Assembly (NCBI GenBank): GCA_964469295.1
Contig: CAYXYJ010000002.1
Coordinates: forward strand, 15,641 to 79,640
Length of the DNA stretch: 64,000 nucleotides
Direction: 5' to 3'
Source: an uncultured Candidatus Saccharibacteria bacterium
GTDB lineage: Bacteria > Patescibacteriota > Minisyncoccia > Phycocordibacterales > UBA918
In this document: positions 10,847-51,930 of the stretch, one piece after another
How the letters are laid out: each line of letters opens with the position of its first letter
How positions within the stretch are numbered: position 1 is the first letter of the stretch
The notes under the pieces: model-generated
The model's database searches: none
What the model was told of the DNA's origin: nothing
What the model saw: the letters and a program-made list of their open reading frames with translations, nothing else
Translations under genes and position numbers: made by a program

Positions 10847-10852
10847 ATACTA

Positions 10853-12070
10853 TCAAGTGTATTGTACCAGACGATTGTAAAGAGCAATGACTTTCTTGGC
10901 AGCGCCGTGCCATGACAATCGATTGATTTCGTCGCGGGCGTAGGTGCGTAGTTGTCGATGTAATACATCGTACCGTAACGCTGCGAGAATTTGATTAGCC
11001 ATTTCATTTACATCCCAAAAATCAACTTTTAGTGTGTGAGAAAGCACCTCACCCACTCCGGATTGTTTGGAAATGAGAGAGGGTGTACCGTGTTGAATCG
11101 CTTCAAGCGGAACCAGTCCGAACGGTTCTGAGACCGACGGCATGACGACTAGATCAGCGGATTGATACATACGATCGCGATCATCATCCCATAAGGCTCC
11201 AGCAAAAATTACGTTCCCAGACAATCCCATTCTCCCCACTTCATTAATAATTTGAGTAGTCATATCACCCCAACCAGAAATCACAAACACCACAGCAGGG
11301 TCAATATCAACCACTTTGCGGGCCGCCCGAACAAAATAATCGACACCTTTTTGAATAGTGATACGCCCATGATACAAAACAATTTTTTTACCTTGCTCTT
11401 TTAGAGACGCTAAACTGGGAGTGTGACGAATTGGTTCATGAGTGTCACAACCATTATGAATCACCGCAATCTTTTCGGGTGAGACATGGTGCTTTTCAAT
11501 TAAAATTCTTTTTGTGAGGTGACTCACGGTGACAATACTATCAGCCACAGCAAAGCCTTCACATTCAATTTGGTACATCGCCGGATCAACCTGAGCACTG
11601 GCTGCTTGGTCAAAAGAAGTCGCATGAACATGCAATACAAGTGGCTTACCGCTTGCTTTTTTAGCGGCGACTCCAGCGAGATACGATGTCCAATCATGCG
11701 CGTGAATGAGGTCAAATGTTTCGGTTTGCGCTATCAAAGACGCCTGATGCGCAAACCGATGAACTTCTTCCAAAATGGTACGGTGGCGAGTAATTTTTTG
11801 TCCGGTTACGGGATCATAGGTGACACTGTTAACCACTGAATCAGTATTGTGATACGGAACGAGTGACGACGCCACCGCTTTTACCGATACTTTGTATTCA
11901 GTATCAGCAAACAAAAATATTGGTTCCCCCATAGTGTCTTGCTTTTTTGGCAACACAAAAAGTACTTCCACCCCTTCATTTATGATTTCTCTCGTTAGTC
12001 CATAACACGCTACGCCCAAACCGCCGTTTTTAATAGGGGGAAAATCCCAACCAAAAGTCAAAACACGCAT
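10853..12070 (-). CDS. glgA: Glycogen synthase-like glycosyltransferase (GT4/GT5)
   Basis: Likely start MRVLTFGWDFPPIKNGGLGVACYGL at 12070 (ORF extends to 12274). FDLIHAHDWTS and EPFGLVPLEA motifs. Confidence 0.6.
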   Translation of the reverse strand: MRVLTFGWDFPPIKNGGLGVACYGLTREIINEGVEVLFVLPKKQDTMGEPIFLFADTEYKVSVKAVASSLVPYHNTDSVVNSVTYDPVTGQKITRHRTILEEVHRFAHQASLIAQTETFDLIHAHDWTSYLAGVAAKKASGKPLVLHVHATSFDQAASAQVDPAMYQIECEGFAVADSIVTVSHLTKRILIEKHHVSPEKIAVIHNGCDTHEPIRHTPSLASLKEQGKKIVLYHGRITIQKGVDYFVRAARKVVDIDPAVVFVISGWGDMTTQIINEVGRMGLSGNVIFAGALWDDDRDRMYQSADLVVMPSVSEPFGLVPLEAIQHGTPSLISKQSGVGEVLSHTLKVDFWDVNEMANQILAALRYDVLHRQLRTYARDEINRLSWHGAAKKVIALYNRLVQYT

Positions 12071-21102: not shown

Positions 21103-21843
21103 ATGCCCGAACAACCTTTTACAACCACCCAAAGTCCACTTACTGGAATGGCTATTCCTATTTCGATTGTCATTGGATTTGCGATGATTGCCGCTGCCAT
21201 TTATTTTAGTGGCTTTGGCAACACTGGAAACACAGCAGTAATCGCTCCAACCGCAACTACAACTGAAAAGGTTATCACCGTCGCTCCAGTCACTGATGCG
21301 GACTATATTCGTGGTAATCCGAATGCCCCAATCATGATTGTCGAATACTCGGATTATGATTGCCCGTATTGTAAAAACTTCCACGAAACGATGAACATGG
21401 TTATGGAAGAATATGGTGTTGATGGCAAAGTAGCCTGGGTCTATCGCCAATTCCCATTGGCACAACTACATCCAAATGCTCCACGCATTTCCGAAGCGGC
21501 TTATTGTGTTGGTGAATTAGGTGGCGACGATGCGTTTTGGAAGTTCTCCGATTTAGTTTTTGAAGAACGAGAATTACGCGAACAAACCAATATGACAAGG
21601 TTACCGGAATTTGCTGAAAAAGCTGGGGTAAATCGCTCGGCGTTTAATACCTGTCTTGATAGTGGCAAATATACCGACGCTGTCACTGCATCATTAAAAT
21701 CTGGTGTTGATGCTGGCGCTCAAGGAACACCACACTCGATTGTAATGGTTGGTGACCAAAAAGCACCGATTAATGGGGCGCAGCCGTATCCAGTGGTAAA
21801 ACAAATGATTGACGGTTTGCTTGCACAACTCGAGGGTCAATAG
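21103..21843 (+). CDS. Membrane-anchored DsbA/BdbD-like thiol:disulfide oxidoreductase
   Basis: N-terminal TM helix, thioredoxin fold with CPYC active site. Confidence 0.65.
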   Translation: MPEQPFTTTQSPLTGMAIPISIVIGFAMIAAAIYFSGFGNTGNTAVIAPTATTTEKVITVAPVTDADYIRGNPNAPIMIVEYSDYDCPYCKNFHETMNMVMEEYGVDGKVAWVYRQFPLAQLHPNAPRISEAAYCVGELGGDDAFWKFSDLVFEERELREQTNMTRLPEFAEKAGVNRSAFNTCLDSGKYTDAVTASLKSGVDAGAQGTPHSIVMVGDQKAPINGAQPYPVVKQMIDGLLAQLEGQ

Positions 21844-33201: not shown

Positions 33202-36200
33202 TTAATTGGTCTCATAAATTGATTCATCCCGTGATCGTCGTGGTGGTCGTTCACCTTCTTCGCGGTCAAGGCGTACATCCAGTGATAGTCCACGCAATTG
33301 ATTCACGAGTACATTAAAGGCAGCTGGTGTATGTGGATGTGGGATTTTTTCGCCACGCACAATCGCGTCAAAGGCGGCTGACCGTCCAACAATATCATCA
33401 GATTTAATGGTGAGCATTTCACGAAGCGTGTGTGCGGCACCATATCCGAGAAGGGCCCAGACTTCCATTTCTCCAAATCGTTGTCCACCGATTTGTGCCT
33501 TTCCGCCAAGCGGCTGTTGCGTAATCAGTGAGTACGGTCCAATCGATCGCATATGGATCTTGTCTTCCACCATGTGGTGCAGTTTCAAAATGTACATGAT
33601 ACCAACGGCTGTTTTTTGCGCAAAGGCATCGCCAGTACGCCCATCGCGGAGTTGGATTTTTCCGTCTTCAGGGAAACCAGCGGCTTTCAACTCGGCTTTT
33701 ACGTGGTTTTCATCAACTCCACCAAATGGTGGTACGACGGCTTGATAGCCGAGCGTCCCCGCAGCCATACCAAGGTGCAATTCCAAAATCTGCCCGAGGT
33801 TCATACGGGATGGTACTCCCAGTGGAGTCAACAGAATATCAATTGGTCGACCATCTTCGGTGTATGGCATATCTTCTTCTGGCAAAATGCGAGAAATTAC
33901 ACCCTTGTTTCCGTGCCGTCCAGCCAATTTGTCGCCCACTGACACATTACGTACCTGTGCGACGGTCACGTGAATACGTTTAATCACGCCACTTTCTAAC
34001 TGATCACCATTTTCTCGCGAAAATACTTTGACACCAATCACACGACCACGCTTACCTGCTTCCAGACGAAGTGAGGTATCTTTTACATCTTTCGCTTTCT
34101 CACCAAAGATACTGCGGAGCAACCGTTCTTCTGGTGTGAGTTGGGTTTCACCTTTTGGCGTAACCTTACCAACCAAAATATCACCCGGACGGACTTCGGC
34201 ACCAATGCGGATAATACCGTTTTCATCGAGATTACGCAGTTTCAATTCACTGACGTTTGGAATATCGGGAGTGGTTACTTCCGGCCCCAGCTTCGTATCT
34301 CGCACCGATACTTCAAGTTCATCAAGGTGAATACTGGCAAACTTGCTGTTCTTAACGAGACGTTCAGAAATAACAATCGCATCTTCGTAGTTTGCGCCAT
34401 TCCAAGACATAAACGCTACCAAAGCGTTTTGTCCGACGGCGAGTTGCCCATGATCCGTTGATGTTGTATCCGCCAACAAATCGCCTCGTTTTACTTTATC
34501 TCCAACCGTCACCACTGGACGATGATAAAACGCTGAGAAATCGTTGGTGCGTTCGAGCGTCGTTAATGGATAGTCACGCTTCTTTCCTTCTTTGTTTTTG
34601 ACCACAATATGAAGAGCATCACATTCCACTACTTCACCAGCTTCATGCGCGTAAATAATTCGTCCACTATCTCGAGCCGCTACCCCTTCAACACCGGTTG
34701 CCACAATTGGTGCTTCGGTGATAAGTAGTGGTGTCGCTTGCTTTTGCATGTTTGAACCCATGAGCGTTCGGTTCGCGTCGTCATGGTTCAAAAATGGAAT
34801 CATTGATGTCGCAATTGAAAAGCCTTGGTTCGTAGCGACGTCCATGTATTCAATATCGTCACGTGATACCGTGCGAGAATCACCACGCTTGCGCGCTTCA
34901 ACTAACTTGTTAGTAATTTTTCCATCTTTATCCAATTCAACGGCTGCGTGCGCAATAGTGAACTTTTCTTCTTCATGCGCATTCATATAGATCACTTCGC
35001 CAGTAACGCGACCTTTCACCACCTTTACATAGGGAGTTTCAATAATGCCAAAACGATTGACTCGAGCATACATTGACAGACGAAGAATCAGACCGATATT
35101 TGGTCCTTCTGGCGTATGGATTGGACAGAGACGACCATAGTGTGAGGTGTGGACGTCACGTACTTCAAAACCAGCGCGCTCACGAGTGAGTCCGCCCGGC
35201 CCCAGCGCTGAGAGGGTGCGGAGGTGTTCGATTTCAGCCAGGTTATTTTGTTGCTGTGAAAATTGTGACAATTGGTTAGTCGAGAAAAATTCTTTAATCG
35301 CAGCCTGAAGTGGTCGCGGATTAAGAATTTGCATTGGCAAAGACGTTTCCGCTTCAATCGTTGACATGCGGTCTTGAATATTTCGCTTCATGCGTGTCAT
35401 ACCAACCCGGACACGTTGTTGCAACATTTCACCAAAGTACCGTACACGGCGGAAGCCAAGGTGATCGATATCGTCAGGCAACGCCATCGGATCATGATTC
35501 ATTTCGATAATATTTTTCAAAATGAGTTTCATGTCTTCGATTGACACAGTTCGGACATCAGTTGCTTTTTTATCTACTGGCAAACCATATCGTTCATTAA
35601 AGTGATGGCGGCCGATTTCAGACAAATCGTAGCGTTCTGGAGCAAAGAGTGAGCGTACAAATTCACGAGCGTTTTCAACCGTCGCCAAATCTCCATCACG
35701 AAGTCGTTTATAGATTTCGATAAATGAATCATCAGCGGTTTTGGCTGGGTCTTTGGCAATGGTAGCCTTCATGTATTCTTCACCACGCTCCACTCCTTTC
35801 ATGAGGGCAATCATGTCTTTATCAGATTCAACGCCAAGGACACGAAGCAGTGATGAGATTGGGAATTTCTTTTTTCGATCGATTTTAACGTAAATAACGC
35901 CGTCGCCGTCGGATTCGATTTCTACCCACGCACCGCGCGCCGGAATGATTTTGGCACCAAAAAGCGTTCGCCCTTTATTTTCTGCCGCCGTAAAAAAGAT
36001 ACCGTACGAGCGAGCAAGTTGAGGTACAATCACCCGTTCAACACCATTAATGATGAAGGTTCCATTTTCGGTCATGAGTGGCATATCTGCCAAAAACATT
36101 TCTTGATCTTTTTCGCCTTCAAAGGTTTTATTCTTCAAAATCACTTGAGCACGGAGCGGAGCGTCATAGGTAATTTTATTTGCTTTGGCAAATTCAGGCG

Positions 36201-36441
36201 TACATTTCGCTTCACCTAATTCGTACTTTTTAAAGCGCAACTCAAACTTCTTTTCTGAATAGTCACTAATTGGTGAAAACTCAGTAAAAATTTCCTTTAA
36301 AGCGGTTTCAATAAACCACTTAAAAGACTCGCGCTGTGGTTCGATGAGATCCGGTACTTCAATCATCGCGTCAGAACTCACCGCAAACTTCTTTTGCGGC
36401 ATGGCTCCAACAGTAGAATAGTCTTCGTACTTTAATTGCAT
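33202..36441 (-). CDS. rpoB: DNA-directed RNA polymerase subunit beta
   Basis: MIEVPDLIEPQRESFKWF N-terminal region and conserved beta motifs. Start is ambiguous: 36441, 36402 or 36483. Confidence 0.95.
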   Translation of the reverse strand: MQLKYEDYSTVGAMPQKKFAVSSDAMIEVPDLIEPQRESFKWFIETALKEIFTEFSPISDYSEKKFELRFKKYELGEAKCTPEFAKANKITYDAPLRAQVILKNKTFEGEKDQEMFLADMPLMTENGTFIINGVERVIVPQLARSYGIFFTAAENKGRTLFGAKIIPARGAWVEIESDGDGVIYVKIDRKKKFPISSLLRVLGVESDKDMIALMKGVERGEEYMKATIAKDPAKTADDSFIEIYKRLRDGDLATVENAREFVRSLFAPERYDLSEIGRHHFNERYGLPVDKKATDVRTVSIEDMKLILKNIIEMNHDPMALPDDIDHLGFRRVRYFGEMLQQRVRVGMTRMKRNIQDRMSTIEAETSLPMQILNPRPLQAAIKEFFSTNQLSQFSQQQNNLAEIEHLRTLSALGPGGLTRERAGFEVRDVHTSHYGRLCPIHTPEGPNIGLILRLSMYARVNRFGIIETPYVKVVKGRVTGEVIYMNAHEEEKFTIAHAAVELDKDGKITNKLVEARKRGDSRTVSRDDIEYMDVATNQGFSIATSMIPFLNHDDANRTLMGSNMQKQATPLLITEAPIVATGVEGVAARDSGRIIYAHEAGEVVECDALHIVVKNKEGKKRDYPLTTLERTNDFSAFYHRPVVTVGDKVKRGDLLADTTSTDHGQLAVGQNALVAFMSWNGANYEDAIVISERLVKNSKFASIHLDELEVSVRDTKLGPEVTTPDIPNVSELKLRNLDENGIIRIGAEVRPGDILVGKVTPKGETQLTPEERLLRSIFGEKAKDVKDTSLRLEAGKRGRVIGVKVFSRENGDQLESGVIKRIHVTVAQVRNVSVGDKLAGRHGNKGVISRILPEEDMPYTEDGRPIDILLTPLGVPSRMNLGQILELHLGMAAGTLGYQAVVPPFGGVDENHVKAELKAAGFPEDGKIQLRDGRTGDAFAQKTAVGIMYILKLHHMVEDKIHMRSIGPYSLITQQPLGGKAQIGGQRFGEMEVWALLGYGAAHTLREMLTIKSDDIVGRSAAFDAIVRGEKIPHPHTPAAFNVLVNQLRGLSLDVRLDREEGERPPRRSRDESIYETN

Positions 36442-36602
36442 AACGTATGAATAATGACACCACCAAACACACAAAAAGCACACGTGTCCGTGCTCTCTAT
36501 CATGTATTAGCGGTAGGCTTGTAATATTGTCATCACGCTCGTGATTTGTACCTCCGCGACATCTCCCAATCGAAACTCATTCGAGACTGCGTTTGTGCCG
36601 GT

Positions 36603-36630
36603 ATTATACTGACTTTATATTTTTTTGCAA
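36603..36630 (-). promoter_or_regulatory. Consensus promoter for rpoBC (minus strand) with ~150-nt leader
   Basis: minus strand: TTGCAA, 16 nt, TATAAT. Confidence 0.5.
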
Positions 36631-36737
36631 GCTAAAAACTTAGGATACTTACCTATTCATCACTACATAACGCCTGCAAAACCCGTTTTTCACCGACTGC
36701 ATCATGAATATACGGTGAGTAGGAAAAGAAAATAGCG

Positions 36738-39494
36738 TTATTCTGCTGTATTTTCACCATCACTCAATGCATCGCCACTCTGACTTGGTGCGGATTCCAG
36801 GCTAGCATCTGACGACGTTTCTACTGCATCACCCGTCGACACTGCAGTATCTTCATCCGTCGCTTCAAAAGCATCGTTTTCCTGATTGTCTTCGTCAACA
36901 TCATTATTACTGGTCGCACTGTCATTAGCCCCACCTGAAGAAACCGGTACTGATACTTCCTGTAAAGTTTCTTCGACAGCGTCTAACCGGCTGCGTAATT
37001 CAGCATTTTCGACTTCGAGTTCAGTAATACGATCTTCATGTCCGCTGACGGTCTGCCATAATTCCTTGATGGCTTCGACCACTACCGCTACCATATTTTT
37101 GGTATTAAGCGACCAATAATCACCTCCCTTACTGACTACTTCTGGTAACACCGTATCAACTTCCTGCGCAATAAATCCAATTTCAGTTTGCTCGCCAAAC
37201 CGTTCTGCATCTTTCCATTCATACCGCACGCCCCGCAACTGTAAAACTAAATCAAGCGCATCTTCGATTTCAACCACATTTTTCTTTAATCGAGCATCTG
37301 ACGCATCGCGAATAATATTTCCGTTGGCGTCAGTGGTAAGGTTCGTGGCGCCACCAAGCAAATTTGATGCCAGAATCGTACCATCAACTGTCAATGCTGT
37401 TGATGGTGTTGATGTACCAATACCGACATGGTTGGTACCACCATTTACATACAAGGTCGGTACTGAGGAAGACCCGACTTGGAAATTACCCCAGACATCC
37501 AAAGTAGTTGCTGGTGAAGAGGTGCCAATACCGACAAATCCAGTTGTGGCCGGAATACGCATCGCTTCTAACGATGCCGATACACCGTAGTTAAATACAA
37601 TCGCTGCGTTAGCGTTCGGATTAATGTTGGTCGAACTACGCAAGACTAACTGATTCCCTTGACCAGAACCACCACGAAGAAGTGGAGCAGTTACTGTACC
37701 AGTAAACGTTGGAGACGCACTGAAAACGATAGAACCAGCATTACCAGTTTCGTCAGTGATGGCGTTTGCTAGGTTTGCACTCGACATCACAGCCAACGTC
37801 GTTGATACACCACTACCCAACCCACTAATTCCTGTCGCTATTGGTAGATTCGATGCGTTGGTGAGATCAACAGTTGATGGTGTACCCAAATTCGGCGTCA
37901 CCAAAGTTGGCGACTGAGCAAATACCGTTGCCCCAGTTCCCGTTTCATCAGACAGCAAACCAGCCAATTGTGATGATGTAGTGAATAACGGACTTAACCC
38001 CAGTGATGAAGTCGACACAGTAAGAGTATTTCCAGCCCAACTTAATCCGGTACCGGTGACAATGCGCGTACTTGGCGTATTGTAAAAATTATTCCAGTTG
38101 GTAGTTGACGCTACCAGCGAAATTTCGTAGCCGGAAGAAAGCACCAATTCATCCGACGCCAACGCCAATCCAGTAGCACCAACACTAAAATTGGTGTGAG
38201 CGGAAATATCAACCGACGCACTATCTAACGTACATTCGATACTGTCACAACTGAAACTACCGAAATCCGTTACAGCCATTTCCGTTGGATCAATATATGA
38301 TCCAAACGCTGACCCACCAGAAATACCAAGCGATGATGTCGCTACCCACGTTGGTACCCCACCAACAACAGACAACACATCGCCAGTGTTTCCAATCGCG
38401 CGTCTTGCGAGTACGCCTGCTCCCGATGAGTACAAAATATCACCAGTGACATATACAGAGAGTCCTGTGCCGCCATAGGTCGTTCCGATTACGTCACCAT
38501 TCCACAACCCATCGGTGATCGTCCCCGTCGCCGATACCAAAAATTGCGAACCGGCGGTTGGACCAACTGTGAGGAGTGATGATGGAGTGGTGGTGCCGAT
38601 ACCCACATTCCCCGTCAATCGATACACATCCGTACCATTACCGTCCCAAGAACTACTGGCATTACCCGCCGTCAGTGATGAACCATTCCAATACAATGAC
38701 CCGCCTTGCGCGTACAAGCGATTAGTAACTGTGCCCGGCGTAAAATTATCGAGATACAACGCCCCGCCGACCACAGACAATAATTCTGGTGGCGTAGTGG
38801 TGCCAATACCTAAACGACCATTCGCGTCCACAAATAATCCTTCATCGTCACCATCACCAGACAAATGATAATTCCCAAGCGCCAGATTAGAACCAATTGG
38901 TCCAGCAAATACCGGCAACGTCAGGGTGGCGCCTGACAATTCGGAAACGTGAATATCATCAAATTTCGCTTTTACGTAATCAGACAATGAATCACTTGTG
39001 CGTTCGGCTTGTTTGTCAATTAACGTTTCTAGTCTGTTGATTTCGTGATGCCATAATTCGTTGCTTTGCAACAATAATCCAGTTTGTCGCCACAGCCACA
39101 TCGTATTCAAATCGCTATCAGCAGAAGATACCGTATATGAGTTTGATAACGGTCGATTTCCAGTTTCGATTGGTGATAGTGTGGTGGTGGCAACACCACG
39201 AACTTGTGCCGTTGGTGTAAAAAGAGAAATATCCGGCTCGCCAGAAGTAATGACCGTAGAGTAATCGGTTGCGTGGTTTACTGGTGTAGGAGCAGTAGAT
39301 ATATATCGATCACTAATGAGTGGAGCCTCGTAGCAATGATCCAGCCATCCCAACAAGACCGGAAAAGTTTGACACCACGTTTGCACCGAAAACCACGACG
39401 CCGCCACAAGCTGTGGTAGCAAAAAACCAACGGCTACAACCGATACGATTATCGTACACAAGAAAAAAGATTGAGGCCTGTCACAACCATTCAT
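36738..39494 (-). CDS. Surface-fibre-like protein with C-terminal phage tail-fibre intramolecular chaperone (peptidase S74) domain
   Basis: N-terminal TM/signal; long Gly/Thr/Ser-rich repeat region (GIGTTTP, LYWNGSSLTAG); ~37060-37310 encodes SDARLKKNVVEIEDALDLVLQLRGVRYEWKD...EIGFIAQEVDTVLPEVV...VVEAIKELW, matching the S74 endosialidase-chaperone consensus; coiled coil and acidic tail follow. Confidence 0.55.
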   Translation of the reverse strand: MNGCDRPQSFFLCTIIVSVVAVGFLLPQLVAASWFSVQTWCQTFPVLLGWLDHCYEAPLISDRYISTAPTPVNHATDYSTVITSGEPDISLFTPTAQVRGVATTTLSPIETGNRPLSNSYTVSSADSDLNTMWLWRQTGLLLQSNELWHHEINRLETLIDKQAERTSDSLSDYVKAKFDDIHVSELSGATLTLPVFAGPIGSNLALGNYHLSGDGDDEGLFVDANGRLGIGTTTPPELLSVVGGALYLDNFTPGTVTNRLYAQGGSLYWNGSSLTAGNASSSWDGNGTDVYRLTGNVGIGTTTPSSLLTVGPTAGSQFLVSATGTITDGLWNGDVIGTTYGGTGLSVYVTGDILYSSGAGVLARRAIGNTGDVLSVVGGVPTWVATSSLGISGGSAFGSYIDPTEMAVTDFGSFSCDSIECTLDSASVDISAHTNFSVGATGLALASDELVLSSGYEISLVASTTNWNNFYNTPSTRIVTGTGLSWAGNTLTVSTSSLGLSPLFTTSSQLAGLLSDETGTGATVFAQSPTLVTPNLGTPSTVDLTNASNLPIATGISGLGSGVSTTLAVMSSANLANAITDETGNAGSIVFSASPTFTGTVTAPLLRGGSGQGNQLVLRSSTNINPNANAAIVFNYGVSASLEAMRIPATTGFVGIGTSSPATTLDVWGNFQVGSSSVPTLYVNGGTNHVGIGTSTPSTALTVDGTILASNLLGGATNLTTDANGNIIRDASDARLKKNVVEIEDALDLVLQLRGVRYEWKDAERFGEQTEIGFIAQEVDTVLPEVVSKGGDYWSLNTKNMVAVVVEAIKELWQTVSGHEDRITELEVENAELRSRLDAVEETLQEVSVPVSSGGANDSATSNNDVDEDNQENDAFEATDEDTAVSTGDAVETSSDASLESAPSQSGDALSDGENTAE

Positions 39495-39530
39495 ATCATT
39501 CTAGTATAGCCTACAAAACGTACCTGATTG

Positions 39531-40226
39531 TTAGTTATCCAACCCCTTCCGCCACCTTTCAATTTCGGCATGATTCCCTTTTAGTAGTACTTCTGGTACT
39601 AAAAATTTTTGTTTTTTATATAACAAAACATCTGGTCGCGTATACGTTACACCGTTTGTGACTCGCTCGTCTTCAAGTGATTCAAACGTGCCGAGTACAC
39701 CCGGAATTTGGCGAGCCACGCTATCAATAATGGTTAATGCTGGCAATTCGCCACCTGTGAGCACGTAGTCGCCGACTGATACTTCTTCGGCATCAAGCAC
39801 TTCCTTCACTCGAGCATCAATTCCCTCGTACCGTCCACTGATTACTACAAGATGGTCGTATTCACTTGCCCATTTTTTGGCTAAACCGTTCGTGAAATTT
39901 GTCCCACGTGGCGACATGATAAGTGTCTTTACTTTCCCATTTTTAATAGCGGTTGATTTTTTACCCACCGCAGTTTGCCACGCGCGCAAAATAGGTTCAG
40001 CCATCATGACCATACCCGGTCCGCCGCCAAATGGTCGTTCATCAACTTTACGGTGTTTATCAGTCGTAAAATCACGAGGATTGTAATAAGACACAGTTAT
40101 TTTCTGGCCGCGAACTTTGGCGCCTTTCCCTTTGTCAATTTTCTGCGCCCGCCCTAAGACACTGGCGTCAGTATACGCTTGGCAAAGCTCCGGAAAAATA
40201 GTAATAACATGAAAATGCATGGTCAA
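39531..40226 (-). CDS. trmD: tRNA (guanine37-N1)-methyltransferase
   Basis: MHFHVITIFPE, SPRGT, GGGPGMVMM motifs. Confidence 0.85.
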   Translation of the reverse strand: MTMHFHVITIFPELCQAYTDASVLGRAQKIDKGKGAKVRGQKITVSYYNPRDFTTDKHRKVDERPFGGGPGMVMMAEPILRAWQTAVGKKSTAIKNGKVKTLIMSPRGTNFTNGLAKKWASEYDHLVVISGRYEGIDARVKEVLDAEEVSVGDYVLTGGELPALTIIDSVARQIPGVLGTFESLEDERVTNGVTYTRPDVLLYKKQKFLVPEVLLKGNHAEIERWRKGLDN

Positions 40227-40283: not shown

Positions 40284-40634
40284 TTATATTTTCAGGTCGT
40301 CGATGGCCTCGTCCAAACTCTTGGTGGCCGATGTTACCATCCCTTCGTCTTCCATGGCATCACTCATGTCACGAGTCATTCCCTTACCTCCCTCTGGTTC
40401 GTTAATTTTTAGATTTACTCGTGCATCGTGTTTCATCCCCACCACCCGCAACAATGTGCGGATAGCTTTGGCGGTATTACCGGAACGACCAATAATCTTA
40501 CCCATATCATCAGCATGAACATCAAGCGTGAGGAGAACTCCCATCTCATCCACTGTGCGATTGATGCGAACAGCATCTGGATTATCGACAAGTGCCTTTA
40601 CTACCGTTTCAAGAAACTGCTGATCTTCGTACAT
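40284..40634 (-). CDS. khpA: KH-domain RNA-binding protein KhpA (YlqC) with acidic C-terminal tail
   Basis: GKIIGRSGNTAKAIRTL KH GXXG loop; sits between rpsP and trmD as in canonical operons. Confidence 0.7.
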   Translation of the reverse strand: MYEDQQFLETVVKALVDNPDAVRINRTVDEMGVLLTLDVHADDMGKIIGRSGNTAKAIRTLLRVVGMKHDARVNLKINEPEGGKGMTRDMSDAMEDEGMVTSATKSLDEAIDDLKI

Positions 40635-40735
40635 ATTTATCGTTACTATCGTGTAAATCGGTCAGTCGGAAGCGGAGGTACTGCATCCATAAGCGACCGT
40701 TACATATATCGTACGAGTCATTAGGAAAATCGTCA

Positions 40736-40775
40736 ACCAAAAACCGGGCACAAGTGCCCGGTTTTTGGTTGATAT
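40736..40775 (-). terminator. Intercistronic hairpin/attenuator between rpsP and khpA
   Basis: aaccaaaaaccgggcac aa gtgcccggtttttggtt. Confidence 0.4.
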
Positions 40776-40783: not shown

Positions 40784-41218
40784 TTATGCCGGTGTTTCTT
40801 CAGTAGTTGGTGTAGCGTCAGCCGGTTCTGCCGCGGCCGCTTTTTCGGCTGCTTCCGCCTCAGCTTTAGCTTTAGCATCTGCTTCGGCTTTCGCTTTTGC
40901 GTCTGCCTCAGCTTTTAATTTGGCTTCGTCGATAATCGGCGACTTCTTTGGCAATACATTTTTCTTCTTTCCGTCAATCAATTTTTGACTCACCAACATG
41001 TTATACACCGTTTCTGATGGCTGCACACCATGAGACAACCAGTGTTTCGCTCGCTCGCCATTAATTGTCACTTTGCCTGCTTTTGGTTCATAGGAACCAA
41101 GAAGGTCAACGGTTTTATTACTTTTGACACTTGTACGCTTATCAACCACTACAATTCGGTAGCTAGGGTTGTTTTTGCGACCAACTCGCTTTAAACGCAT
41201 CATTAACATAGTGGGCAA
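40784..41218 (-). CDS. rpsP: 30S ribosomal protein S16 with C-terminal KAEADAKA repeat extension
   Basis: MRLKRVGRKNNPSYRIVVVD matches the S16 N-terminus (start may be 41200); ~60-aa Ala/Lys/Glu-rich tail from 24-nt DNA repeats. Confidence 0.85.
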   Translation of the reverse strand: MPTMLMMRLKRVGRKNNPSYRIVVVDKRTSVKSNKTVDLLGSYEPKAGKVTINGERAKHWLSHGVQPSETVYNMLVSQKLIDGKKKNVLPKKSPIIDEAKLKAEADAKAKAEADAKAKAEAEAAEKAAAAEPADATPTTEETPA

Positions 41219-43276: not shown

Positions 43277-45637
43277 CTACACTTCCTGCGCCAACGGTAT
43301 CACCTCGACCGTGGTTTGGGCTCTCGTGGCACCACAGGTAATGGTGAAGGTTTGAGTGCTTTGGAGAGGGTTTGAGGTGTGGGTACCGGCCAGTTCGTCG
43401 GTGATGGTACTTGGACTACTGGGGTACACAATAGGAGCCGTTGGCATACCAGGGCCAGTGAGGGTACAGGACGTTGGATTAACACCGCGGATACTGTACG
43501 TGATGGTGGCAGTGCCGTTGTAACGGACGATGCGGGGGTTGGCGGTGATGGTCAGGGTTGGGGGTTGTACTAGGGATTCTGAGAGACCTCCGGGGTTGTG
43601 AGAGCCATCTGGATACCAGCACGCAGGGTCAAGAGCATCGGCATAATCGTCTTCGGAATCGTCGTTATCGTGACCGTCGGAGCATTCGGGAGGAACAATT
43701 TGGTTAATAGTAATGGACACAATTGGACTTTCGTTATTGTTGCGAGTTTGTTCACCAAGTGCCGTTACATTGTCAGGATTAGCGATTAATCGGAATTGGT
43801 GCTCTCCTACCGTTAACTTATTTTGATCCAGAGAAAATGACCCCGATGATCTTCCAGCAAGTATCGGCTGTACCGTACCATTGGCCACCGGTCCCCAAGC
43901 CGACCAAGCCAGACTACCAACCGCTCGCTGACGAGCCATCAATCTATAGGGTACCGTAACGCCAGCCGGAGTATCATTACCTATGTTGTGAAGCTGACCA
44001 GTTAGCACAGTGCGGTCACATGACCCGTCAACTGGAGTGGTACAGGTACGTTGTAATACCAATGACGCTTGGTAATCTGGGTAGTCACCAATCACTAATA
44101 CGTTTTCCGTATCCGTTAATGGCGTACCATCGGTACCAGTACAATTTAACGTAAAGGTGAACGAACCGAGATTGGTGGCGGGAATGACCTGAAAACCACT
44201 TTCACTCTTTATCCCCAACCAAGCGCCAGACGCACGACAGGTACCTGGTCGAATATGTTGACCAAACCAGGTTAATAGAATATCTTCACCCATTTTGACC
44301 GTTGAAGAAAGAACATTAAGATACAAAATGGGGGTATCTGCCGAAACTGTCACATAATAATTCTGCCAAGGCGTCGTGTTGTTGGCGCGAGAAGTTGGAT
44401 CAGTTTCTACTGTCGATGCCGGATCAACTAGCATCCGTACCCGCCAAGCCCCAGTAGTGGTATGACGAATATTGTTAAAATTTTGATTAACAATAGCGCC
44501 TACTGCCAAACCAGAGACGGTTGTATCAATCGCGAAATCGTTGTTACGGCCGTTCGTAAAGCCATCACGACCATAATCAAATTGTAATGTTACTGGCACA
44601 TCACCAGTAGCGGGTGCCGTGCCCAAATTTTGCACAGTACCGCGAATTGTATATGGTTGGTTCACAATCTGATCAGGCACAATCGGCAAAGAGCTAGCCA
44701 AATCAATAGCAGGATTTGGCAAAGCTGGACAATTCACCGCAAAGGATTTAATCGTATCATTCCAGCCCGCATTGGCCATAAGGGCACTTGTCGGAGCACT
44801 TGATGGACCATACATGAGTGCATAGATTGTATCACCACGACGGCACGTACCACCAGTGCAAGTAAAGTTGCCGCTGATATTGAAATCATTCAATAATCGC
44901 TCAGTTGTCAAAGTACCCCAGTGGGATCGATTAAGTCGGTTATTATTTCGATACAAATGACTATTGATGGTTGTCGACGCCACCGTACCGCGGATAGTGA
45001 TAGTGCGAGTCCGTCCATCTTTCCACGCGACTGGAGTGGGATAACGGTAATCATACAGATAACCTGGTGACTGGCCACAATTTGGTGTGTGGTTAAAACG
45101 ACTCAAATTTGCCCACCAGTTGTCAGTTAATCCCTGTGATCTAATCCAGGGACGAAATGTATCGTACAATACTCCATCAACATAGATTTGTAGTGTGACT
45201 GGATCCAGGTGATCACGAGTATCACACGACCAACCCGAAATAACCTGACAGGTATTATTGCACCGACTGGTATCCTCTCCTGGGGCGCCAGTACACGGCA
45301 CATTCTTGTAATCATATCCACTACCATAGACATTCAGATCACCAATAATTCGCCATCGCTCATGAGTACGTGGATCCACGTACTCTGGTCCGTCATCGTC
45401 ATCGTTCCGGGGCCTAGGCGGAGTATTATTAACAGGGGCCAAAAATGGCCCCTGTTGACCATTGGACGGTTGATAGATCGTTACCATTTGACCATTAATG
45501 TTTGCTTGACCAAATACCTGACTGCCAGGAGTTAGATGCGTACTCACTATCGTTCCTTGGGCCTCTGTATACGCAATAAAAACAATGAACGAACAACTTA
45601 TAGCCATCACACTACCTAGAACTCGAGTGTATTTCAT
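43277..45637 (-). CDS. Large secreted Cys-rich hypothetical protein
   Basis: Signal peptide MKYTRVLGSVMAISCSFIVFIAYTEA; 786 aa; many Cys; acidic CSDGHDNDDSEDDYADALDPAC segment. Confidence 0.4.
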   Translation of the reverse strand: MKYTRVLGSVMAISCSFIVFIAYTEAQGTIVSTHLTPGSQVFGQANINGQMVTIYQPSNGQQGPFLAPVNNTPPRPRNDDDDGPEYVDPRTHERWRIIGDLNVYGSGYDYKNVPCTGAPGEDTSRCNNTCQVISGWSCDTRDHLDPVTLQIYVDGVLYDTFRPWIRSQGLTDNWWANLSRFNHTPNCGQSPGYLYDYRYPTPVAWKDGRTRTITIRGTVASTTINSHLYRNNNRLNRSHWGTLTTERLLNDFNISGNFTCTGGTCRRGDTIYALMYGPSSAPTSALMANAGWNDTIKSFAVNCPALPNPAIDLASSLPIVPDQIVNQPYTIRGTVQNLGTAPATGDVPVTLQFDYGRDGFTNGRNNDFAIDTTVSGLAVGAIVNQNFNNIRHTTTGAWRVRMLVDPASTVETDPTSRANNTTPWQNYYVTVSADTPILYLNVLSSTVKMGEDILLTWFGQHIRPGTCRASGAWLGIKSESGFQVIPATNLGSFTFTLNCTGTDGTPLTDTENVLVIGDYPDYQASLVLQRTCTTPVDGSCDRTVLTGQLHNIGNDTPAGVTVPYRLMARQRAVGSLAWSAWGPVANGTVQPILAGRSSGSFSLDQNKLTVGEHQFRLIANPDNVTALGEQTRNNNESPIVSITINQIVPPECSDGHDNDDSEDDYADALDPACWYPDGSHNPGGLSESLVQPPTLTITANPRIVRYNGTATITYSIRGVNPTSCTLTGPGMPTAPIVYPSSPSTITDELAGTHTSNPLQSTQTFTITCGATRAQTTVEVIPLAQEV

Positions 45638-45785
45638 ATTTTGTTAATATTATCATTCGGGACATATTCTCTTGACAAGCCTTATGTGCATAAGTTTGGA
45701 CTACTTTACTTTTTCTGGCACATGTGTTATATAATATGTCTGAACGCTAGGATCGACCTAGTGCGTAAACAAGAGGAGTTCTAAA

Positions 45786-46091
45786 TTGCATACGTGTATC
45801 ATGGCCACCTTGGCCACAATCGCGCTCACGGCAACCATCGCCAATGCGGACGTGCCCCACTGCCCCACCCAGCTGCGCCCGCCGCCCGCCGCCGTCACGT
45901 TCGGGCCGTACCTGGTCACCGGGTATGCCACCCCTGATGCTCACGCATATGGGCTGCCGAACTGCGATGCGGCTATCGACATAGCCAACACCTTGCTGTC
46001 GGCTGTGGGTGACGGCTTTGCCATCACCATCGTTGCGGTGCCCGACGGCACCTACACCGTGGCCGTGACCCGGGCTCCCGATCAAGGGTAA
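45786..46091 (+). CDS. GC-rich small secreted protein (compositionally atypical gene B)
   Basis: AGAGGAG 7 nt upstream of TTG 45786 (alternative ATG 45804); signal peptide MATLATIALTATIANA; 2 Cys in mature part; visibly GC-rich; host-like TGnTATAAT promoter ~45725. Confidence 0.45.
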   Translation: MHTCIMATLATIALTATIANADVPHCPTQLRPPPAAVTFGPYLVTGYATPDAHAYGLPNCDAAIDIANTLLSAVGDGFAITIVAVPDGTYTVAVTRAPDQG

Positions 46092-46153
46092 CCGGACATG
46101 TCACGACAATGAATCCGGCGTCATTCTTCTCAGAGTGATGCCGGATAATTCGT

Positions 46154-46552
46154 TTAATGAATTGCATCCACCACATCTTCACCAGCAGAATCGTCTATTG
46201 ATGGTCCGGATGTTTCGCCATTATTGATCTCCGTCTGATGCACCGGCTGAATCTCAATCGTGTACAAATTCGTCTCAATATTTTTGCTGACTCTAGTCGT
46301 ATACTGGACACCAATCGCTTTGATAAAAATCTCCTCCATTTCAGCCGCAATAGCAATAGCGCTTTGTTGCGAGGTGATACCCTCTACAACCATCGCGTTC
46401 CCCTCGCCCACGACCTCAATCGCACGGGTATATGAAGGCATAAAAGCCATGCCAACCAATACAGTCATAACACCCGTAATGATATGAGGATTTCTATACA
46501 GTCGTGACATATTCATATTATCGATTTTTATACGTACCATAAATCGTCTCAT
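46154..46552 (-). CDS. Hypothetical signal-anchored protein
   Basis: 132-aa ORF, one TM helix, acidic C-terminus. Confidence 0.3.
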   Translation of the reverse strand: MRRFMVRIKIDNMNMSRLYRNPHIITGVMTVLVGMAFMPSYTRAIEVVGEGNAMVVEGITSQQSAIAIAAEMEEIFIKAIGVQYTTRVSKNIETNLYTIEIQPVHQTEINNGETSGPSIDDSAGEDVVDAIH

Positions 46553-47399
46553 AATCTGCAGTCTGTTTTAACTGCTCAAAATACTGCACCACCAGACTCT
46601 CGGCTGCCAACAAGTCATTTTGACCGTATTCACCGTAGGCCATACCACGCTTGGCATAGGCTGCACCAAGGGCACGATAATCAACTGCATTAGCTGGATC
46701 AACCATTGACATTATTTCAGCAGTCAAAAAGCCATTTACTGCCCGGGCTGGTGGATAGGTCAAGGCAACAGTCGAATCAAATGGGCTGGTCGGAATGTGA
46801 GTCAAAAGCTCGACACCAGTTACTCGTTGATGAAATGCAGGCTGTTTATACCGGACATTCAACAAGTGCATCAAGTACCACACCTCATCTTGAATTTGGT
46901 ACAACAGTTCGCGCTGCGGGTATTCAGCCAATACCATACTAAAAGGCATCTGATCGTCAAAGAGAAAATTATCGATTCGATCAAACTTGGCATTAGCAAC
47001 AAGATTTGGCGATAAGACTGATCTGGCAGCTGTATAATCCGTTTTATCGCTGACTGAGGATTCACTCGGCGCAGAAATCTTTATTACGGCGTCAGCATCA
47101 GGCACCAGGTTAAAAGTAACAGTGTTTTGCTTATGCTCAGTAACTAAATCGAGAACCTCGTTGCGAATTTGTGCGGCTTTGGCTGGATCCATCGGTTCAA
47201 CATACCCAAATGGCATTTCACTGACTTCCTCAACTTCTGCTGGCAATGGTTCCTGATTCCAATACAGCCAACCAAAAAATGCGCCGCCAACAACTGCGCC
47301 CAAGACACATAGAAAGAGTAGTCGCTTGGTCTGCTGCTGGCGTGTTAGCTTTACTCGCTCACCCGAGAACACTACATCATTTCCTGGTTCCATATTCAA
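46518..47399 (-). CDS. Hypothetical membrane-anchored protein
   Basis: 293 aa, single N-terminal TM helix (LLFLCVLGAVVGGAFFGWLYW). Confidence 0.35.
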   Translation of the reverse strand: MNMEPGNDVVFSGERVKLTRQQQTKRLLFLCVLGAVVGGAFFGWLYWNQEPLPAEVEEVSEMPFGYVEPMDPAKAAQIRNEVLDLVTEHKQNTVTFNLVPDADAVIKISAPSESSVSDKTDYTAARSVLSPNLVANAKFDRIDNFLFDDQMPFSMVLAEYPQRELLYQIQDEVWYLMHLLNVRYKQPAFHQRVTGVELLTHIPTSPFDSTVALTYPPARAVNGFLTAEIMSMVDPANAVDYRALGAAYAKRGMAYGEYGQNDLLAAESLVVQYFEQLKQTADYETIYGTYKNR

Positions 47400-47483
47400 T
47401 GGTCATTAATAATACTATAAGTAATTATACTGGGTTTCCTGTAGTCACGATTGGTAATTATCCCCTTTTTATTTATTATAAGC

Positions 47484-48395
47484 CTACGCCGGGCGGCGAC
47501 GAAGTGCCTCGTGCGCACCATAGACTTTGGCTGTGTATTCGCGCGCATGTTCTTTGTAACGCGAGCGCCATTCCTCGAGCATCGCGGTCGTCGCCATACC
47601 AGCATAGACATCATATCCGGTCAAAATATAGGCTTCATCAAACAACGCGACCGTGTCAGCCGGCGATGGAAAAGTAGCCGCAAACTGTTTAATGATCTGC
47701 TCGAGATTACCCATGCCCGCGTTATAGCTACCGATCAAAACCGGGGCCAGAAAACAAACTGCAAATGCTTCCTCGTTCCCGGCAAAATGGTTCTCGCGGA
47801 TGAGCGCCAATTCGGCTCGGCAGGTGGTGGTAATATGCTGATAGGCTTGGACAAATAACCGTCCGGCCACTTTTATTTGTGCTACTACATCATCAGGCTG
47901 TTCGGTTGGCAGTGCGAGTTCATCCCAGGTGGCTGGCATGAGTTGCATGAGGCCAAAGGCACCAGCAGAACTGGTGCGATCAGACGTAAACCGCGACTCC
48001 ACAAACGCCAGGCCGGGGATCAGATTCGTGATGGTGGTACGAAGCGCATAATTATCAATCGCCGAGACATCAAAATGCTCGGTCAGTAACTGGATGATGG
48101 TATCGGTATCATCAATAGTAACTAATTCCGCTGCATACTGGTCGGCAAAGGCGTCCCGTTCAGCATTGAAATACGTACTATTCGATTTGTCATATTCGAC
48201 CGCTTCGGTAGTTTCGGGACCGGCCAGGGATTCTTCGACCGCTGGTTCCGGTACGGGCGGGGCGGCGGCTGGTAATTCGGGATTATCAGATGGCGCGGAT
48301 TCACCAAAACGGCCGGCCGCCACAGCAGCGCCAACCGCCGCCCCGCCCATACCAGCCAAAAACCCTCGCCGTGTCCATTGTTTCCCTCGCTCCAT
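47484..48395 (-). CDS. Lytic transglycosylase (SLT domain) with twin-arginine-like signal
   Basis: TRRGFLAGMGGAAVGAAVAA N-terminus; catalytic ESRFTSDRTSSAGAFGLMQLMP; 5' part of the gene is GC-enriched. Confidence 0.6.
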   Translation of the reverse strand: MERGKQWTRRGFLAGMGGAAVGAAVAAGRFGESAPSDNPELPAAAPPVPEPAVEESLAGPETTEAVEYDKSNSTYFNAERDAFADQYAAELVTIDDTDTIIQLLTEHFDVSAIDNYALRTTITNLIPGLAFVESRFTSDRTSSAGAFGLMQLMPATWDELALPTEQPDDVVAQIKVAGRLFVQAYQHITTTCRAELALIRENHFAGNEEAFAVCFLAPVLIGSYNAGMGNLEQIIKQFAATFPSPADTVALFDEAYILTGYDVYAGMATTAMLEEWRSRYKEHAREYTAKVYGAHEALRRRPA

Positions 48396-50655: not shown

Positions 50656-51165
50656 TTACCAAGTGGCCGCCCCACTTGAATAGACAGCATAGGTGGTTGC
50701 ATACATCGTAGTCGTACTTCGTGAGTATTCATCAGTGAGGAGTTTAATCGTTTTTTGCTCAACTGAGTTCCATGCCATAAATTTATAATCCGTACCATTC
50801 GATCTATATAAATATCCTTGGCTAGCGTCAGTATTCGGATCCCATGGCAATTGTGCAATGAAGTCAGGCGTTAAACCACTGATATAGTTATTTGGCGTAC
50901 AGGACGCTCCGTACGTGGCATGATTTGTACCTGACCAATTGCCACTACCCTTACACCCTAATGGATACGAGCCATTCTGTGCTTTGTATAACTCAAGCGC
51001 CAACCGTACCTCTTCAAGCGAAGACTTACGGATGTCATCTCGCGCCCCACCGCGGGCACTACCGAAATTCGCGTACACAATACTGGCGAGAATCCCAATC
51101 ACACTAATAACCACCATTAATTCTACCAACGTAAAGCCTCTTTTTTGTTTAAAATTATATATCAT
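50656..51165 (-). CDS. Type IV pilin/pseudopilin (prepilin)
   Basis: Class III signal KRG|FTLVELMVVISVIGILA; likely start MIYNFKQKRG (51165); C-terminal Cys pair. Confidence 0.65.
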   Translation of the reverse strand: MIYNFKQKRGFTLVELMVVISVIGILASIVYANFGSARGGARDDIRKSSLEEVRLALELYKAQNGSYPLGCKGSGNWSGTNHATYGASCTPNNYISGLTPDFIAQLPWDPNTDASQGYLYRSNGTDYKFMAWNSVEQKTIKLLTDEYSRSTTTMYATTYAVYSSGAATW

Positions 51166-51179
51166 ATACAAATAGTATC

Positions 51180-51854
51180 TTATCGGCACGTTATCGTGGT
51201 CGTATCCTGCACATATGCTGGAGTAGTACTCGAGACATTTCGAGGAGCAGCGAATCCTCCCCAGATACCATACGAATTACTAAAAGGAGCTCGTGAAGCA
51301 TCGCATACTGCAGGCAAATTATTACTACTATACGTCACTTGACCACACCAGCCGATTACCTCGCGATCCGACGATCCGCTCACCAATGAACCTCCTTCAT
51401 TGGCCACCCGTACATCACAACTCTTTAAGGTGTGTTCATGAGTCACAACTTCAGATTCCACCGTCCGACGAGCAACTAATTTAAACACTGTTCCGTTACT
51501 GTTGGTCATATACGAATATCCCTCATTGCTTCCACGTTTGGGATCGTGGGGGAGACTAGGAATAAAAGTGGGTGCAAGACCAAGAATGTATTCCGAGCAG
51601 TCCCGTTCAAATGTCCACGTCGGACCAACGTTTCCGCAGCCAGCTTCGGGATAGCGACCGTTTTGTTGTTTGTATTGGTTAATAGCTACCTCCAGTCGTC
51701 GCAAATCGGCCTGCCGTTCGGCGTCACGCCCCTTAGCCCCGACACCCGAAAGATTCGCAATTACTATCGCTACCAAAATGCCTAAAATAGCTACAACAAC
51801 CATCAATTCAATGAGCGTAAATCCCCCGTGTTGTATGAGACGGTTTGTCGTCAT
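51180..51854 (-). CDS. Type IV pilin (prepilin)
   Basis: MTTNRLIQHGG|FTLIELMVVVAILGILVA; ORF 51929 extension rejected. Confidence 0.65.
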   Translation of the reverse strand: MTTNRLIQHGGFTLIELMVVVAILGILVAIVIANLSGVGAKGRDAERQADLRRLEVAINQYKQQNGRYPEAGCGNVGPTWTFERDCSEYILGLAPTFIPSLPHDPKRGSNEGYSYMTNSNGTVFKLVARRTVESEVVTHEHTLKSCDVRVANEGGSLVSGSSDREVIGWCGQVTYSSNNLPAVCDASRAPFSNSYGIWGGFAAPRNVSSTTPAYVQDTTTITCR

Positions 51855-51930
51855 AAATGATATATTTCTAGTGTACCATACAGAAAAGCTGGCCAGGCTA
51901 CGCCTGGCCAGCTTTTCTGTGCAAATCACC

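Follow-up and report, generated by a model that had tools for sequence, protein, structure and literature searches.

A 64,000-nucleotide stretch of DNA from an uncultured Candidatus Saccharibacteria bacterium (GTDB lineage Patescibacteriota; Minisyncoccia; Phycocordibacterales; UBA918; contig CAYXYJ010000002.1, positions 15,641 to 79,640), here called the window, carries between the housekeeping genes trmD and rpoB a gene for a 918-residue fibre protein that ends in a chaperone domain of the Peptidase_S74 family. The gene is intact, its S74 domain has the catalytic dyad and the fold of the family, its location is specific to the lineage, and its product is a mosaic. The distal third of the protein is homologous, as judged by sequence comparison, to phage tail fibres and to the MAT fibres of Bdellovibrio. 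The product is very probably a secreted, S74-matured trimeric fibre. On balance, we favor the view that this phage-type fibre is made and used by the bacterium itself, for the recognition of a host or of another cell surface. The narrower proposal of a host-recognition adhesin is made by analogy, and its chances are placed a little below even.

The gene runs without interruption over the interval that had been listed for it in an earlier, sequence-only reading of the same DNA, which was made without database searches (the coordinates of all features are collected in Table 1). The exact protein is present in the sequence databases as an unnamed singleton cluster (P0001), and a second copy was found neither in the window nor in any of the 80 trmD loci with which it was compared. 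The GC content of the gene is 0.470 and that of its third codon positions (GC3) 0.391, versus window medians of 0.458 and 0.417, and its codon-usage distance is the smallest among the 35 window genes above 600 bp for which this distance was calculated. With GC, GC3, and codon usage all native, the gene is not a compositionally foreign recent import, and that explanation of its origin was discarded. The protein was searched against the Pfam, NCBIfam, and PHROGs profiles. Pfam recognized one domain only, Peptidase_S74 (PF13884), NCBIfam gave no match, and in none of the three collections was an enzymatic domain found outside S74. In PHROGs, 16 tail-fibre or baseplate families matched, the best being phrog_5668 (1e-28, residues 567-837).

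The match to PF13884 scores 68.5 bits (curated cut-off, 22) and covers profile positions 1-57 of 58. The motifs that had been quoted from the letters alone, SDARLK (residues 732-737), GVRYEWKD, IGFIAQEV, and VVEAIKELW, were all found in the protein, in an agreement far beyond chance. The S74 assignment of the sequence-only reading is thus borne out by the profile, by the modelled fold, and by the Ser/Lys pair; of the two outcomes that it had named as speaking against it, a profile search without a hit and a missing catalytic pair, neither occurred. On this sequence evidence, the protein belongs fully to the S74 domain family. S732 and K737 stand in S-x4-K spacing, and the predicted scissile bond lies between A731 and S732, which also answers the earlier call to locate a cleavage site. 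S732, D733, and K737 account for three of just six invariant columns in an alignment of 40 sequences. Among the 63 S74-bearing homologues that were retrieved, SDxxxK is conserved in 60; S-S-x-R-F-K takes its place in two of the remaining three.

The catalytic mechanism was mapped from two characterized fibres, phage T5 pb1 (PMC4690869) and Bdellovibrio Bd3182 (PMC10769870). In T5 pb1, the bond between Thr1263 and Ser1264 is cut after activation of Ser1264 by Lys1269, and an Arg from the neighbouring subunit ties the cleavage to correct folding of the trimer; the folding sensor consists of Arg1250 and Asp1239, and a trimeric coiled coil occupies the centre of the chaperone (PMC4690869). In Bd3182, the substitution S782A blocks self-cleavage (PMC10769870).

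An AlphaFold2 model of residues 570-860 has a predicted local distance difference test score (pLDDT) above 90 across residues 729-849. Its best match among solved structures, as found with Foldseek, is the ICA domain of MYRF (7dc3; E=1e-5, TM-score 0.65 on the target, 29% identity), and other top matches are the chaperones of the K1F endosialidase (3gw6) and of the GA-1 neck appendage (3gud). The S74 domain was reportedly first described on the K1F endosialidase. When a profile of the fibre family was compared with the PDB, it matched 7dc3 at 1.7e-14 and the phage fibres 8jov and 6f45 at 2.7e-18 and 9e-10, respectively. The MYRF domain is at the same time the best structural match and the best single-sequence PDB match of the window fibre, and it represents another case in which this phage module has been reused by a cell. 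Its cleavage frees a transcription factor from the membrane, whereas for the window protein the maturation of an extracellular fibre is proposed.

The piece predicted to be released by cleavage comprises 187 residues, including the S74 core, the long helix at residues 798-846, and the acidic tail. Asp and Glu make up 22-30% of this tail, which has no Lys or Arg. A long disordered tail rich in D, E, T, and P follows the chaperone coiled coil in nearly every member of the family; a tail in this position is not mentioned in the S74 and MAT papers cited here. Candidate roles include solubility, a signal for export or timing, and an activity of the released fragment.

At the other end of the protein, residues 10-32 are strongly hydrophobic (the Kyte-Doolittle score exceeds 2 in windows that start at residues 7-15), and AlphaFold2 places a helix at residues 7-25. 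The sequence-only reading had taken this segment for an anchor, but it has the layout of a cleavable signal peptide, for which the -3/-1 rule predicts a cut between VAA and S33. A cleavable Sec signal peptide is more likely than a membrane anchor. A hydrophobic N-terminus occurs in 74 of the 109 homologues that start with Met, several of them with textbook AxA sites. In 25 of the 109, regular expressions found it together with a Cys loop, and in nine they found a helix motif. The putative signal peptide is followed by a Cys-x12-Cys loop, a possible surface-attachment element, and a C-x12-C arrangement stands at the same position in 11 homologues. After a linker comes the helix that may form a trimeric coiled-coil neck; some homologues have an acidic 'LFxKQxDxxxDS' helix resembling it. 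A membrane-anchored DsbA/thioredoxin-like oxidoreductase (PF13462, 6e-24) is encoded at 21103-21843 on the plus strand of the window. Such an enzyme would permit disulfides in exported proteins, e.g., C41-C54 and C416-C421 of the fibre.

Between these two ends lie the rod and the tip. Gly, Ser, and Thr make up 33.6% of the whole protein and 40-50% of residues 250-700. The sequence-only reading had described a Gly/Thr/Ser-rich repetitive rod; the composition agrees with that description, and the tandem repetition does not, the rod being a cassette mosaic in which a GIGTxxP unit occurs four times (residues 229, 298, 655, and 691). The DNA repeats of the gene are the short GIGT units alone. No tandem or inverted repeats were detected in it, and a tandem-repeat rod or repeats for phase variation were rejected for this reason. 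Rod cassettes of 40-100 residues match different homologues in varying order and copy number. One cassette, residues 506-602, is 65% identical to part of P0022, a true T4-like phage fibre with an Mtd_N N-terminus and no signal peptide, the gene of which is accompanied by genes for gp13, a neck protein, gp15, terminase, sheath, tube, and portal. Among the annotated tail fibres of cultured phages, tblastn matches are limited to residues ~577-844; they start at ~577-599 and show 27-35% identity. In IMG/VR, just two contigs share cassettes with the protein, and the shared stretches of 27-50 residues are uninformative. Because cassettes are common to the window protein and a T4-like phage fibre, a phage ancestry is plausible.

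The window protein shares its S74 fold and the Ser/Lys (i, i+5) dyad with the fibres of K1F (3GW6), T5 (pb1, 4UW8), T4-like phages (6F45), and GA-1 (3GUD), and in phage fibres with a C-terminal chaperone the homology runs ~150 residues upstream into the tip of the window protein. Phage fibres begin with a region for attachment to the virion; the window protein has a secretion signal instead. Unlike them, it is also encoded alone between housekeeping genes, with native composition. A PHROGs scan of the unannotated window open reading frames (ORFs) revealed no phage structural module near the gene, and no capsid, tail, terminase, or integrase genes adjoin it. One of the homologues, P0009, is encoded on a contig of 914 kb, where its neighbours are ribosomal, glycolytic, and cell-wall genes. 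The trmD and rpoB flanks, the lack of phage structural families in the other window ORFs tested (an Ig-repeat surface protein excepted), the native codons, and the housekeeping context of P0009 speak for a cellular, not a viral, gene. A further candidate for a phage-like surface protein lies 22 kb from the fibre gene. It is an Ig-like repeat protein, the C-terminal 701 residues of which are encoded at 61895-64000 on the minus strand, where the gene is cut by the window end, and it matches phrog_2155 ('virion structural protein') at 5e-51 in four stretches.

The nearest characterized cellular system is that of the MAT fibres, e.g., Bd3182 of the S74 subgroup. These mosaic trimeric fibres are located on the surface of the predator Bdellovibrio and are involved in prey handling; 13 of the 21 end in S74 (PMC10769870). 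At ~1,000 residues in length, they begin with a signal peptide, directly after which comes a conserved, beta-rich N-terminal domain of ~130 residues (PMC10769870). The window fibre resembles them in its chromosomal, non-phage gene, predicted signal peptide, mosaic rod, beta-helix tip, and C-terminal S74 with SDxxxK. The family profile (A1) matched the MAT structures 8ond (Bd2133, 1e-17), 8oml (5e-11), 8ol4 and 8onf (1e-7), 8ojn, 8onb, and 8onc (Bd3182, 5.8e-7), and 8on4 (2.8e-5). These matches run through the beta-helix unit 'ERMRI..GNVGIGT..P...L.V', and the window protein carries the aligned unit at residues 643-668 ('LEAMRIPATTGFVGIGTSSPATTLDV'). A beta-rich N-terminal domain of the MAT type was not evident in the AlphaFold2 model, in which residues 33-183 form, at low confidence, short helices, then a disordered linker, then one long helix. 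As the domain that defines MAT proteins was not found, the fibre is described as MAT/S74-like in its working and is not filed as a MAT member. Bdellovibrio lives on other bacteria, and the same is assumed for the window organism from its phylum. The two systems also differ in other respects. Self-cleavage, surface location, and trimer structure have been demonstrated for MAT fibres, whereas they are proposed for the window fibre. The two organisms belong to different phyla, and Bdellovibrio is diderm, whereas the cultured representative of the Paceibacteria is described as Gram-positive (PMC12281837).

A protein search with the fibre returned 529 matches at E<1e-5, the majority from Parcubacteria/Paceibacterota. 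Those with names are hypothetical proteins or 'tail fiber domain-containing proteins' from Candidatus Paceibacterota, Parcubacteria, Pacebacteria, Kaiserbacteria, and the Patescibacteria group. The second name is given automatically by NCBI PGAP, and the proteins that bear it in Paceibacterota, Parcubacteria, and Kaiserbacteria belong to the same family: dozens of the 529 matches are so named or classified, and they have the S74 end, the coiled coil, and the acidic tail of the window protein. Most family members combine a signal-like N-terminus, GIGT units, the S74 core, the coiled coil, and the acidic tail. No close orthologue was found among 5.8 billion clusters, the best matches having 43-55% identity over at most 42% of the length, and no near-full-length relative exceeds 43% identity. 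In the library that was searched, no directly relevant paper on S74 or tail-fibre proteins of Patescibacteria was found. The picture that emerges is that of a large, automatically annotated, and undescribed family that appears to diversify by the shuffling of cassettes, including exchange with phage fibres.

A survey of orthologues, which the sequence-only reading had proposed, thus produced many homologues, but in relatives the fibre gene stands at differing sites. Two of them, P0002 and P0003, share one site, in which MGMT, in some cases an HD protein, the fibre, a small secreted protein, and ApbE follow each other. This site is syntenic with positions 212-9500 of the window, with neighbours 52-79% identical, and the window has no fibre gene there. 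P0003 is co-linear with the window fibre over residues 95-900 at 32% identity. Given the differing sites and the identity of 32% compared with 52-79%, fibre genes vary in site and diverge much faster than their neighbours. Another homologue, P0006 (996 residues), is encoded within an element (contig L082, 5847-18991) that carries a tyrosine integrase, AlpA, a Replic_Relax relaxase, and a TrwB-like coupling ATPase. Integrative mobilisable elements can thus carry members of the fibre family.

The small secreted protein of the MGMT-ApbE site has an 'ARCEST...G..QV' motif. In the window it is encoded at 1786-2268 on the plus strand with no fibre gene beside it, and it adjoins the fibre gene in two relatives (L087, 8597-9082; L081, 7493-7903). 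In a third (L083, 11686-12135), the equivalent position beside the fibre gene is occupied by a DPBB_1-domain protein. The window protein with the ARCEST motif had no match in Pfam or PHROGs; it is possibly lysozyme- or SLT-like. The arrangement may mean that a fibre and a wall-lytic enzyme act together, or it may be mere synteny.

The position of the window fibre gene was compared with that in relatives chosen by a TrmD query. The closest genome (L001), a metagenome-assembled genome of Candidatus Paceibacteria, has 78% identity in TrmD and 85% in RpoB; the next (L002) has 69% and 81%, respectively, and more distant Paceibacterota follow. The window organism is itself treated here as an ultrasmall Paceibacteria bacterium of the candidate phyla radiation. 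The order trmD-slot-rpoB-rpoC is kept in seven Patescibacteria relatives, with rpsP and/or khpA upstream in five, and none of the seven has a fibre gene in the slot. This agrees with the insertion into a housekeeping block that had been read from the window alone, as does the common minus-strand orientation of rpsP, khpA, trmD, the fibre gene, rpoB, and rpoC. In L001, the slot (10690-11680) holds an antitoxin-like ORF and a PemK/MazF toxin (PF02452, 1.5e-23), and in L007 (10651-11927) a DUF5674 protein. ORFs with no recognized function occupy it in L002 (10705-11777), L005, and L030, and it is empty in L004 and L008. DNA similarity to both L001 and L002 ends within trmD, and that to L001 resumes at 36608-36560, in the promoter and leader of rpoB. 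These breakpoints give a slot of ~2.9 kb in the window versus ~0.8 kb in L001. In this clade, the trmD-rpoB gap (window 36610-39531) serves as a slot for variable cargo. The stop codon of trmD and the start of the fibre gene are 36 bp apart; the sequence between them contains nothing that resembles a terminator, and the fibre gene is probably co-transcribed with trmD.

The sequence-only reading had also placed the fibre gene where rplS usually follows trmD, as in the rpsP-rimM-trmD-rplS operon of the Escherichia coli type. For ordinary bacteria the premise is sound: rplS lies near trmD in 60 of the 80 loci, and rimM in 51. It does not hold for the window or for any Patescibacteria trmD locus, in which neither gene was found with E. 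coli RplS (L19) and RimM sequences as queries. As rplS is absent from the Patescibacteria loci, nothing was displaced by the fibre gene. Displacement of rplS was rejected as an explanation, the small slot ORFs of the relatives being the MazF toxin pair, DUF5674, or unknowns.

Table 1. Features of the fibre gene, of its product, and of its genomic surroundings (window coordinates; residues refer to the 918-residue protein)
Feature	Coordinates	Strand	Evidence or remarks
Fibre gene including stop codon, 918 aa	36738..39494	-	Uninterrupted ORF, ATG start
Sec signal-peptide-like segment, residues 1-32	39399..39494	-	n-region with R6, h-region 10-26 (17 residues), P27, V30-A31-A32 before S33
Cys-x12-Cys loop, aromatic/hydrophobic, residues 33-55	39330..39398	-	SWFSVQTW-C41-QTFPVLLGWLDH-C54-Y
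T/S/P-rich linker, predicted disordered, residues 56-128	39111..39329	-	AlphaFold2 pLDDT <50, composition
Long helix, candidate trimeric coiled-coil neck, residues 145-183	38946..39062	-	AlphaFold2 pLDDT ~68-71
G/S/T-rich mosaic rod and tip (predicted mature shaft), residues 185-731	37302..38942	-	Composition, motifs, cassette matches
Rod cassette, residues 506-602	37689..37979	-	LSDETGTG...SPTL.TP.LGTPS...TGISGLG...; match to P0022
Distal tip, homologous to phage tail-fibre ends, residues 577-731	37302..37766	-	tblastn, PHROGs
Pfam Peptidase_S74 core, residues 732-787	37134..37301	-	PF13884, E=6.2e-19; AlphaFold2 pLDDT >90
SDARLK catalytic motif, residues 732-737	37284..37301	-	Nucleophile S732, base K737, predicted cut between A731 and S732
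C-terminal long helix of chaperone (coiled-coil former), residues 798-846 (49 residues)	36957..37103	-	AlphaFold2 pLDDT ~91-96
Acidic disordered tail, residues 850-918 (69 residues)	36741..36947	-	AlphaFold2 pLDDT <50
trmD, upstream slot edge	39531..40226	-	PF01746, 1e-42
khpA	40284-40634	-	
rpsP	40784-41218	-	
rpoB, downstream of fibre gene	33202-36483	-	
Sigma-70-like rpoB promoter, TTGCAA-16-TATAAT, downstream slot edge	36603..36630	-	10/12 matches, best promoter-like site of the region

Several other features of this neighbourhood were recorded. Further neighbours include the genes for primase and sigma-70, on the minus strand as well, and those for RNase R and SMC. The gap between khpA and trmD is variable too, with a NADAR protein in L001 and a 159-residue unknown ORF in L002, and it is empty in the window. 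In L030, a Nomurabacteria relative, a 936-residue protein with PD40 and dockerin-like matches is encoded between rpsP and khpA (5644-8454); it is another large surface-type gene inside the rpsP/khpA/trmD housekeeping block. The rpoB ORF as listed (1093 residues, GTG start at 36483) is ~20-27 codons longer than those of relatives (1052-1079 residues), and the true start is therefore probably further downstream. In that case, the rpoB leader would include a hairpin and the T-run behind it (36500-36471). A perfect hairpin with an 18-bp stem, nine G-C pairs, and a poor T-tract, terminator-like, is found in the gap between rpsP and khpA (40733-40772, minus strand). L001 and L002 lack a block of ~5 kb that the window has between the genes for RNase R and SMC (43277-48395). 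Besides three small unknown ORFs, the block contains genes for a 786-residue secreted protein, whose CARDB match (21.4 bits) falls short of the 22.7-bit cut-off, and for an SLT-domain transglycosylase (47484-48395). The transglycosylase gene is GC-rich for this window (0.544, compared with the median of 0.458). Two adjacent genes for type IV pilin-like proteins with the prepilin N-terminal methylation motif (PF07963) are located beside SMC at 50656-51189 and 51180-51929 on the minus strand. ARAGORN detected no tRNA or tmRNA genes in the 64 kb.

The following mechanism is proposed for the fibre. The chains would be exported by the Sec system through the N-terminal signal peptide, and three of them would assemble from the C-terminus, where the S74 chaperone (732 to ~849) would trimerise with a central coiled coil. 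As suggested by K1F, T5, MYRF, and Bd3182, the chaperone would template the interdigitated beta-helix of the distal rod. K737-activated S732 would cut the chain only in the correctly folded trimer, freeing the 187-residue piece of chaperone and acidic tail. The mature fibre of ~700 residues may, by analogy, be held on the cell by its N-terminal region, through either the Cys-loop/neck module or an uncleaved signal anchor. By analogy with characterized fibres, the cleavage would leave the tip (~577-731) exposed, and this tip might bind a surface structure of another cell, most plausibly the host.

A number of points weigh against this interpretation. Expression, trimerisation, cleavage, surface location, and binding are all predictions from sequence and analogy, and the lifestyle of the organism is assumed from its phylum. 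The T5-type Arg/Asp sensor was not mapped confidently: D722 is at least 90% conserved and R729 is present, and one subfamily of homologues has no Arg of the putative sensor ('GNVSVSSDERLK'). The rod was modelled with low confidence, the model of the full-length monomer is weak outside the S74 region, and structural modelling was carried out on monomers alone. The tip shows no domain recognisable as receptor-binding or as a lectin. At the N-terminus, a hidden Markov model (HMM) built from the 11 Cys loops did not score the window protein at all, and a phmmer search with residues 1-200 against 1.84 billion representatives returned only the protein itself. A conserved N-terminal anchor module, consisting of the Cys loop and an 'LFxKQxDxxYDS' helix, had been considered as a candidate. 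After the failed HMM and with no phmmer homologue, this shared module was downgraded to a resemblance.

Four other explanations have been considered. The one that survives best, although it appears distinctly unlikely, is a surface fibre with a role that does not involve a host, such as cohesion of cell chains, spacing of the envelope or S-layer, or service as a phage decoy. An export signal and a fibre architecture are equally compatible with such roles, and chains of cells, with extracellular material around them, are known from cultured Paceibacteria (PMC12281837). However, housekeeping structural proteins are usually conserved and syntenic, and the fibre is a singleton that exchanges cassettes and sits in a variable slot. 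Its singleton status, its absence from the slot of relatives, and its exchange of cassettes form the pattern that would be expected of a specificity determinant, as in the recognition role favored here. The only cultured representative of the Paceibacteria attaches specifically to one host structure by a recognition factor that is unknown (PMC12281837).

The fibre could also be a secreted trimeric enzyme, a depolymerase or a tailspike-like glycanase acting on the polysaccharide of the host or of the cell itself, with S74 as a mere folding aid. S74 is known on the K1F endosialidase, the chaperone of which is among the fold matches. Pectate-lyase/beta-helix domains (PF12708/PF13229) are present in the family members P0008, P0056, and P0058, and in the three relatives described above the fibre gene adjoins the small secreted protein (with the ARCEST motif in two, DPBB_1 in one). 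The absence of an enzymatic domain outside S74 from the window protein argues against this, and the region ahead of S74 consists of short GIGTxxP beta-helix repeats, as in the non-enzymatic Bd2133 and Bd3182. In addition, T5 pb1 is an S74 fibre with a purely receptor-binding role (PMC4690869). An enzyme is, for these reasons, somewhat less probable still than a surface fibre with another role.

A phage relic would be a fibre left by a decayed prophage or carried on a mobile element, with no role for the cell. It could account for the homology of the C-terminal third to phage tail fibres, for the rod cassette in common with a T4-like phage, and for the mobile element around P0006. The variable slot, with a toxin-antitoxin pair in the closest relative, would also be in accord with it. 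Such a relic would not be expected to have an intact ORF with all catalytic residues, the most native codon usage of the window, or a signal-peptide-like N-terminus of the kind that phage fibres such as P0022 lack. Moreover, integrase, capsid, tail, and terminase genes were not found nearby, and the secreted architecture is common to hundreds of homologues, one of them in a plain chromosomal context. The chances of a relic are accordingly considered slim.

A fibre of an extracellular contractile injection system or tailocin, the remaining genes of which would lie outside the window, is the most remote of the four: S74 fibres are reported on such injection systems, and the genome was examined over 64 kb only, but sheath, tube, and baseplate genes were found neither in the window nor in the contexts of three homologues (L081, L083, and L087), and a signal peptide is unexpected for a particle that is assembled in the cytoplasm.

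To our knowledge, the ways in which Patescibacteria find and hold their hosts are largely unknown, and only type IV pili have been implicated, only in Saccharibacteria. Phage-type S74 fibres used by cells are of a known kind, and the present one would not greatly surprise a specialist, although the Patescibacteria family itself is undescribed. If the protein were merely another annotated 'tail fiber domain-containing protein' with a different surface role, the finding would be ordinary. As a recognition factor, the fibre is a concrete and testable candidate in Paceibacteria, one that differs between close relatives, and it would extend the precedent of Bdellovibrio, in which phage receptor-binding hardware has been reused, to a second and very different lineage. 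A bolder idea, for the moment rather unlikely, is that Paceibacteria and other bacteria of the candidate phyla radiation carry a large, hypervariable repertoire of S74 fibres as host-range determinants. These would exchange cassettes of rod and tip with tailed phages, which might infect the same hosts, and their genes would move among a few permissive intergenic slots of genomes that are otherwise syntenic and streamlined. If this were true, an episymbiont and a phage could share receptor-binding modules.

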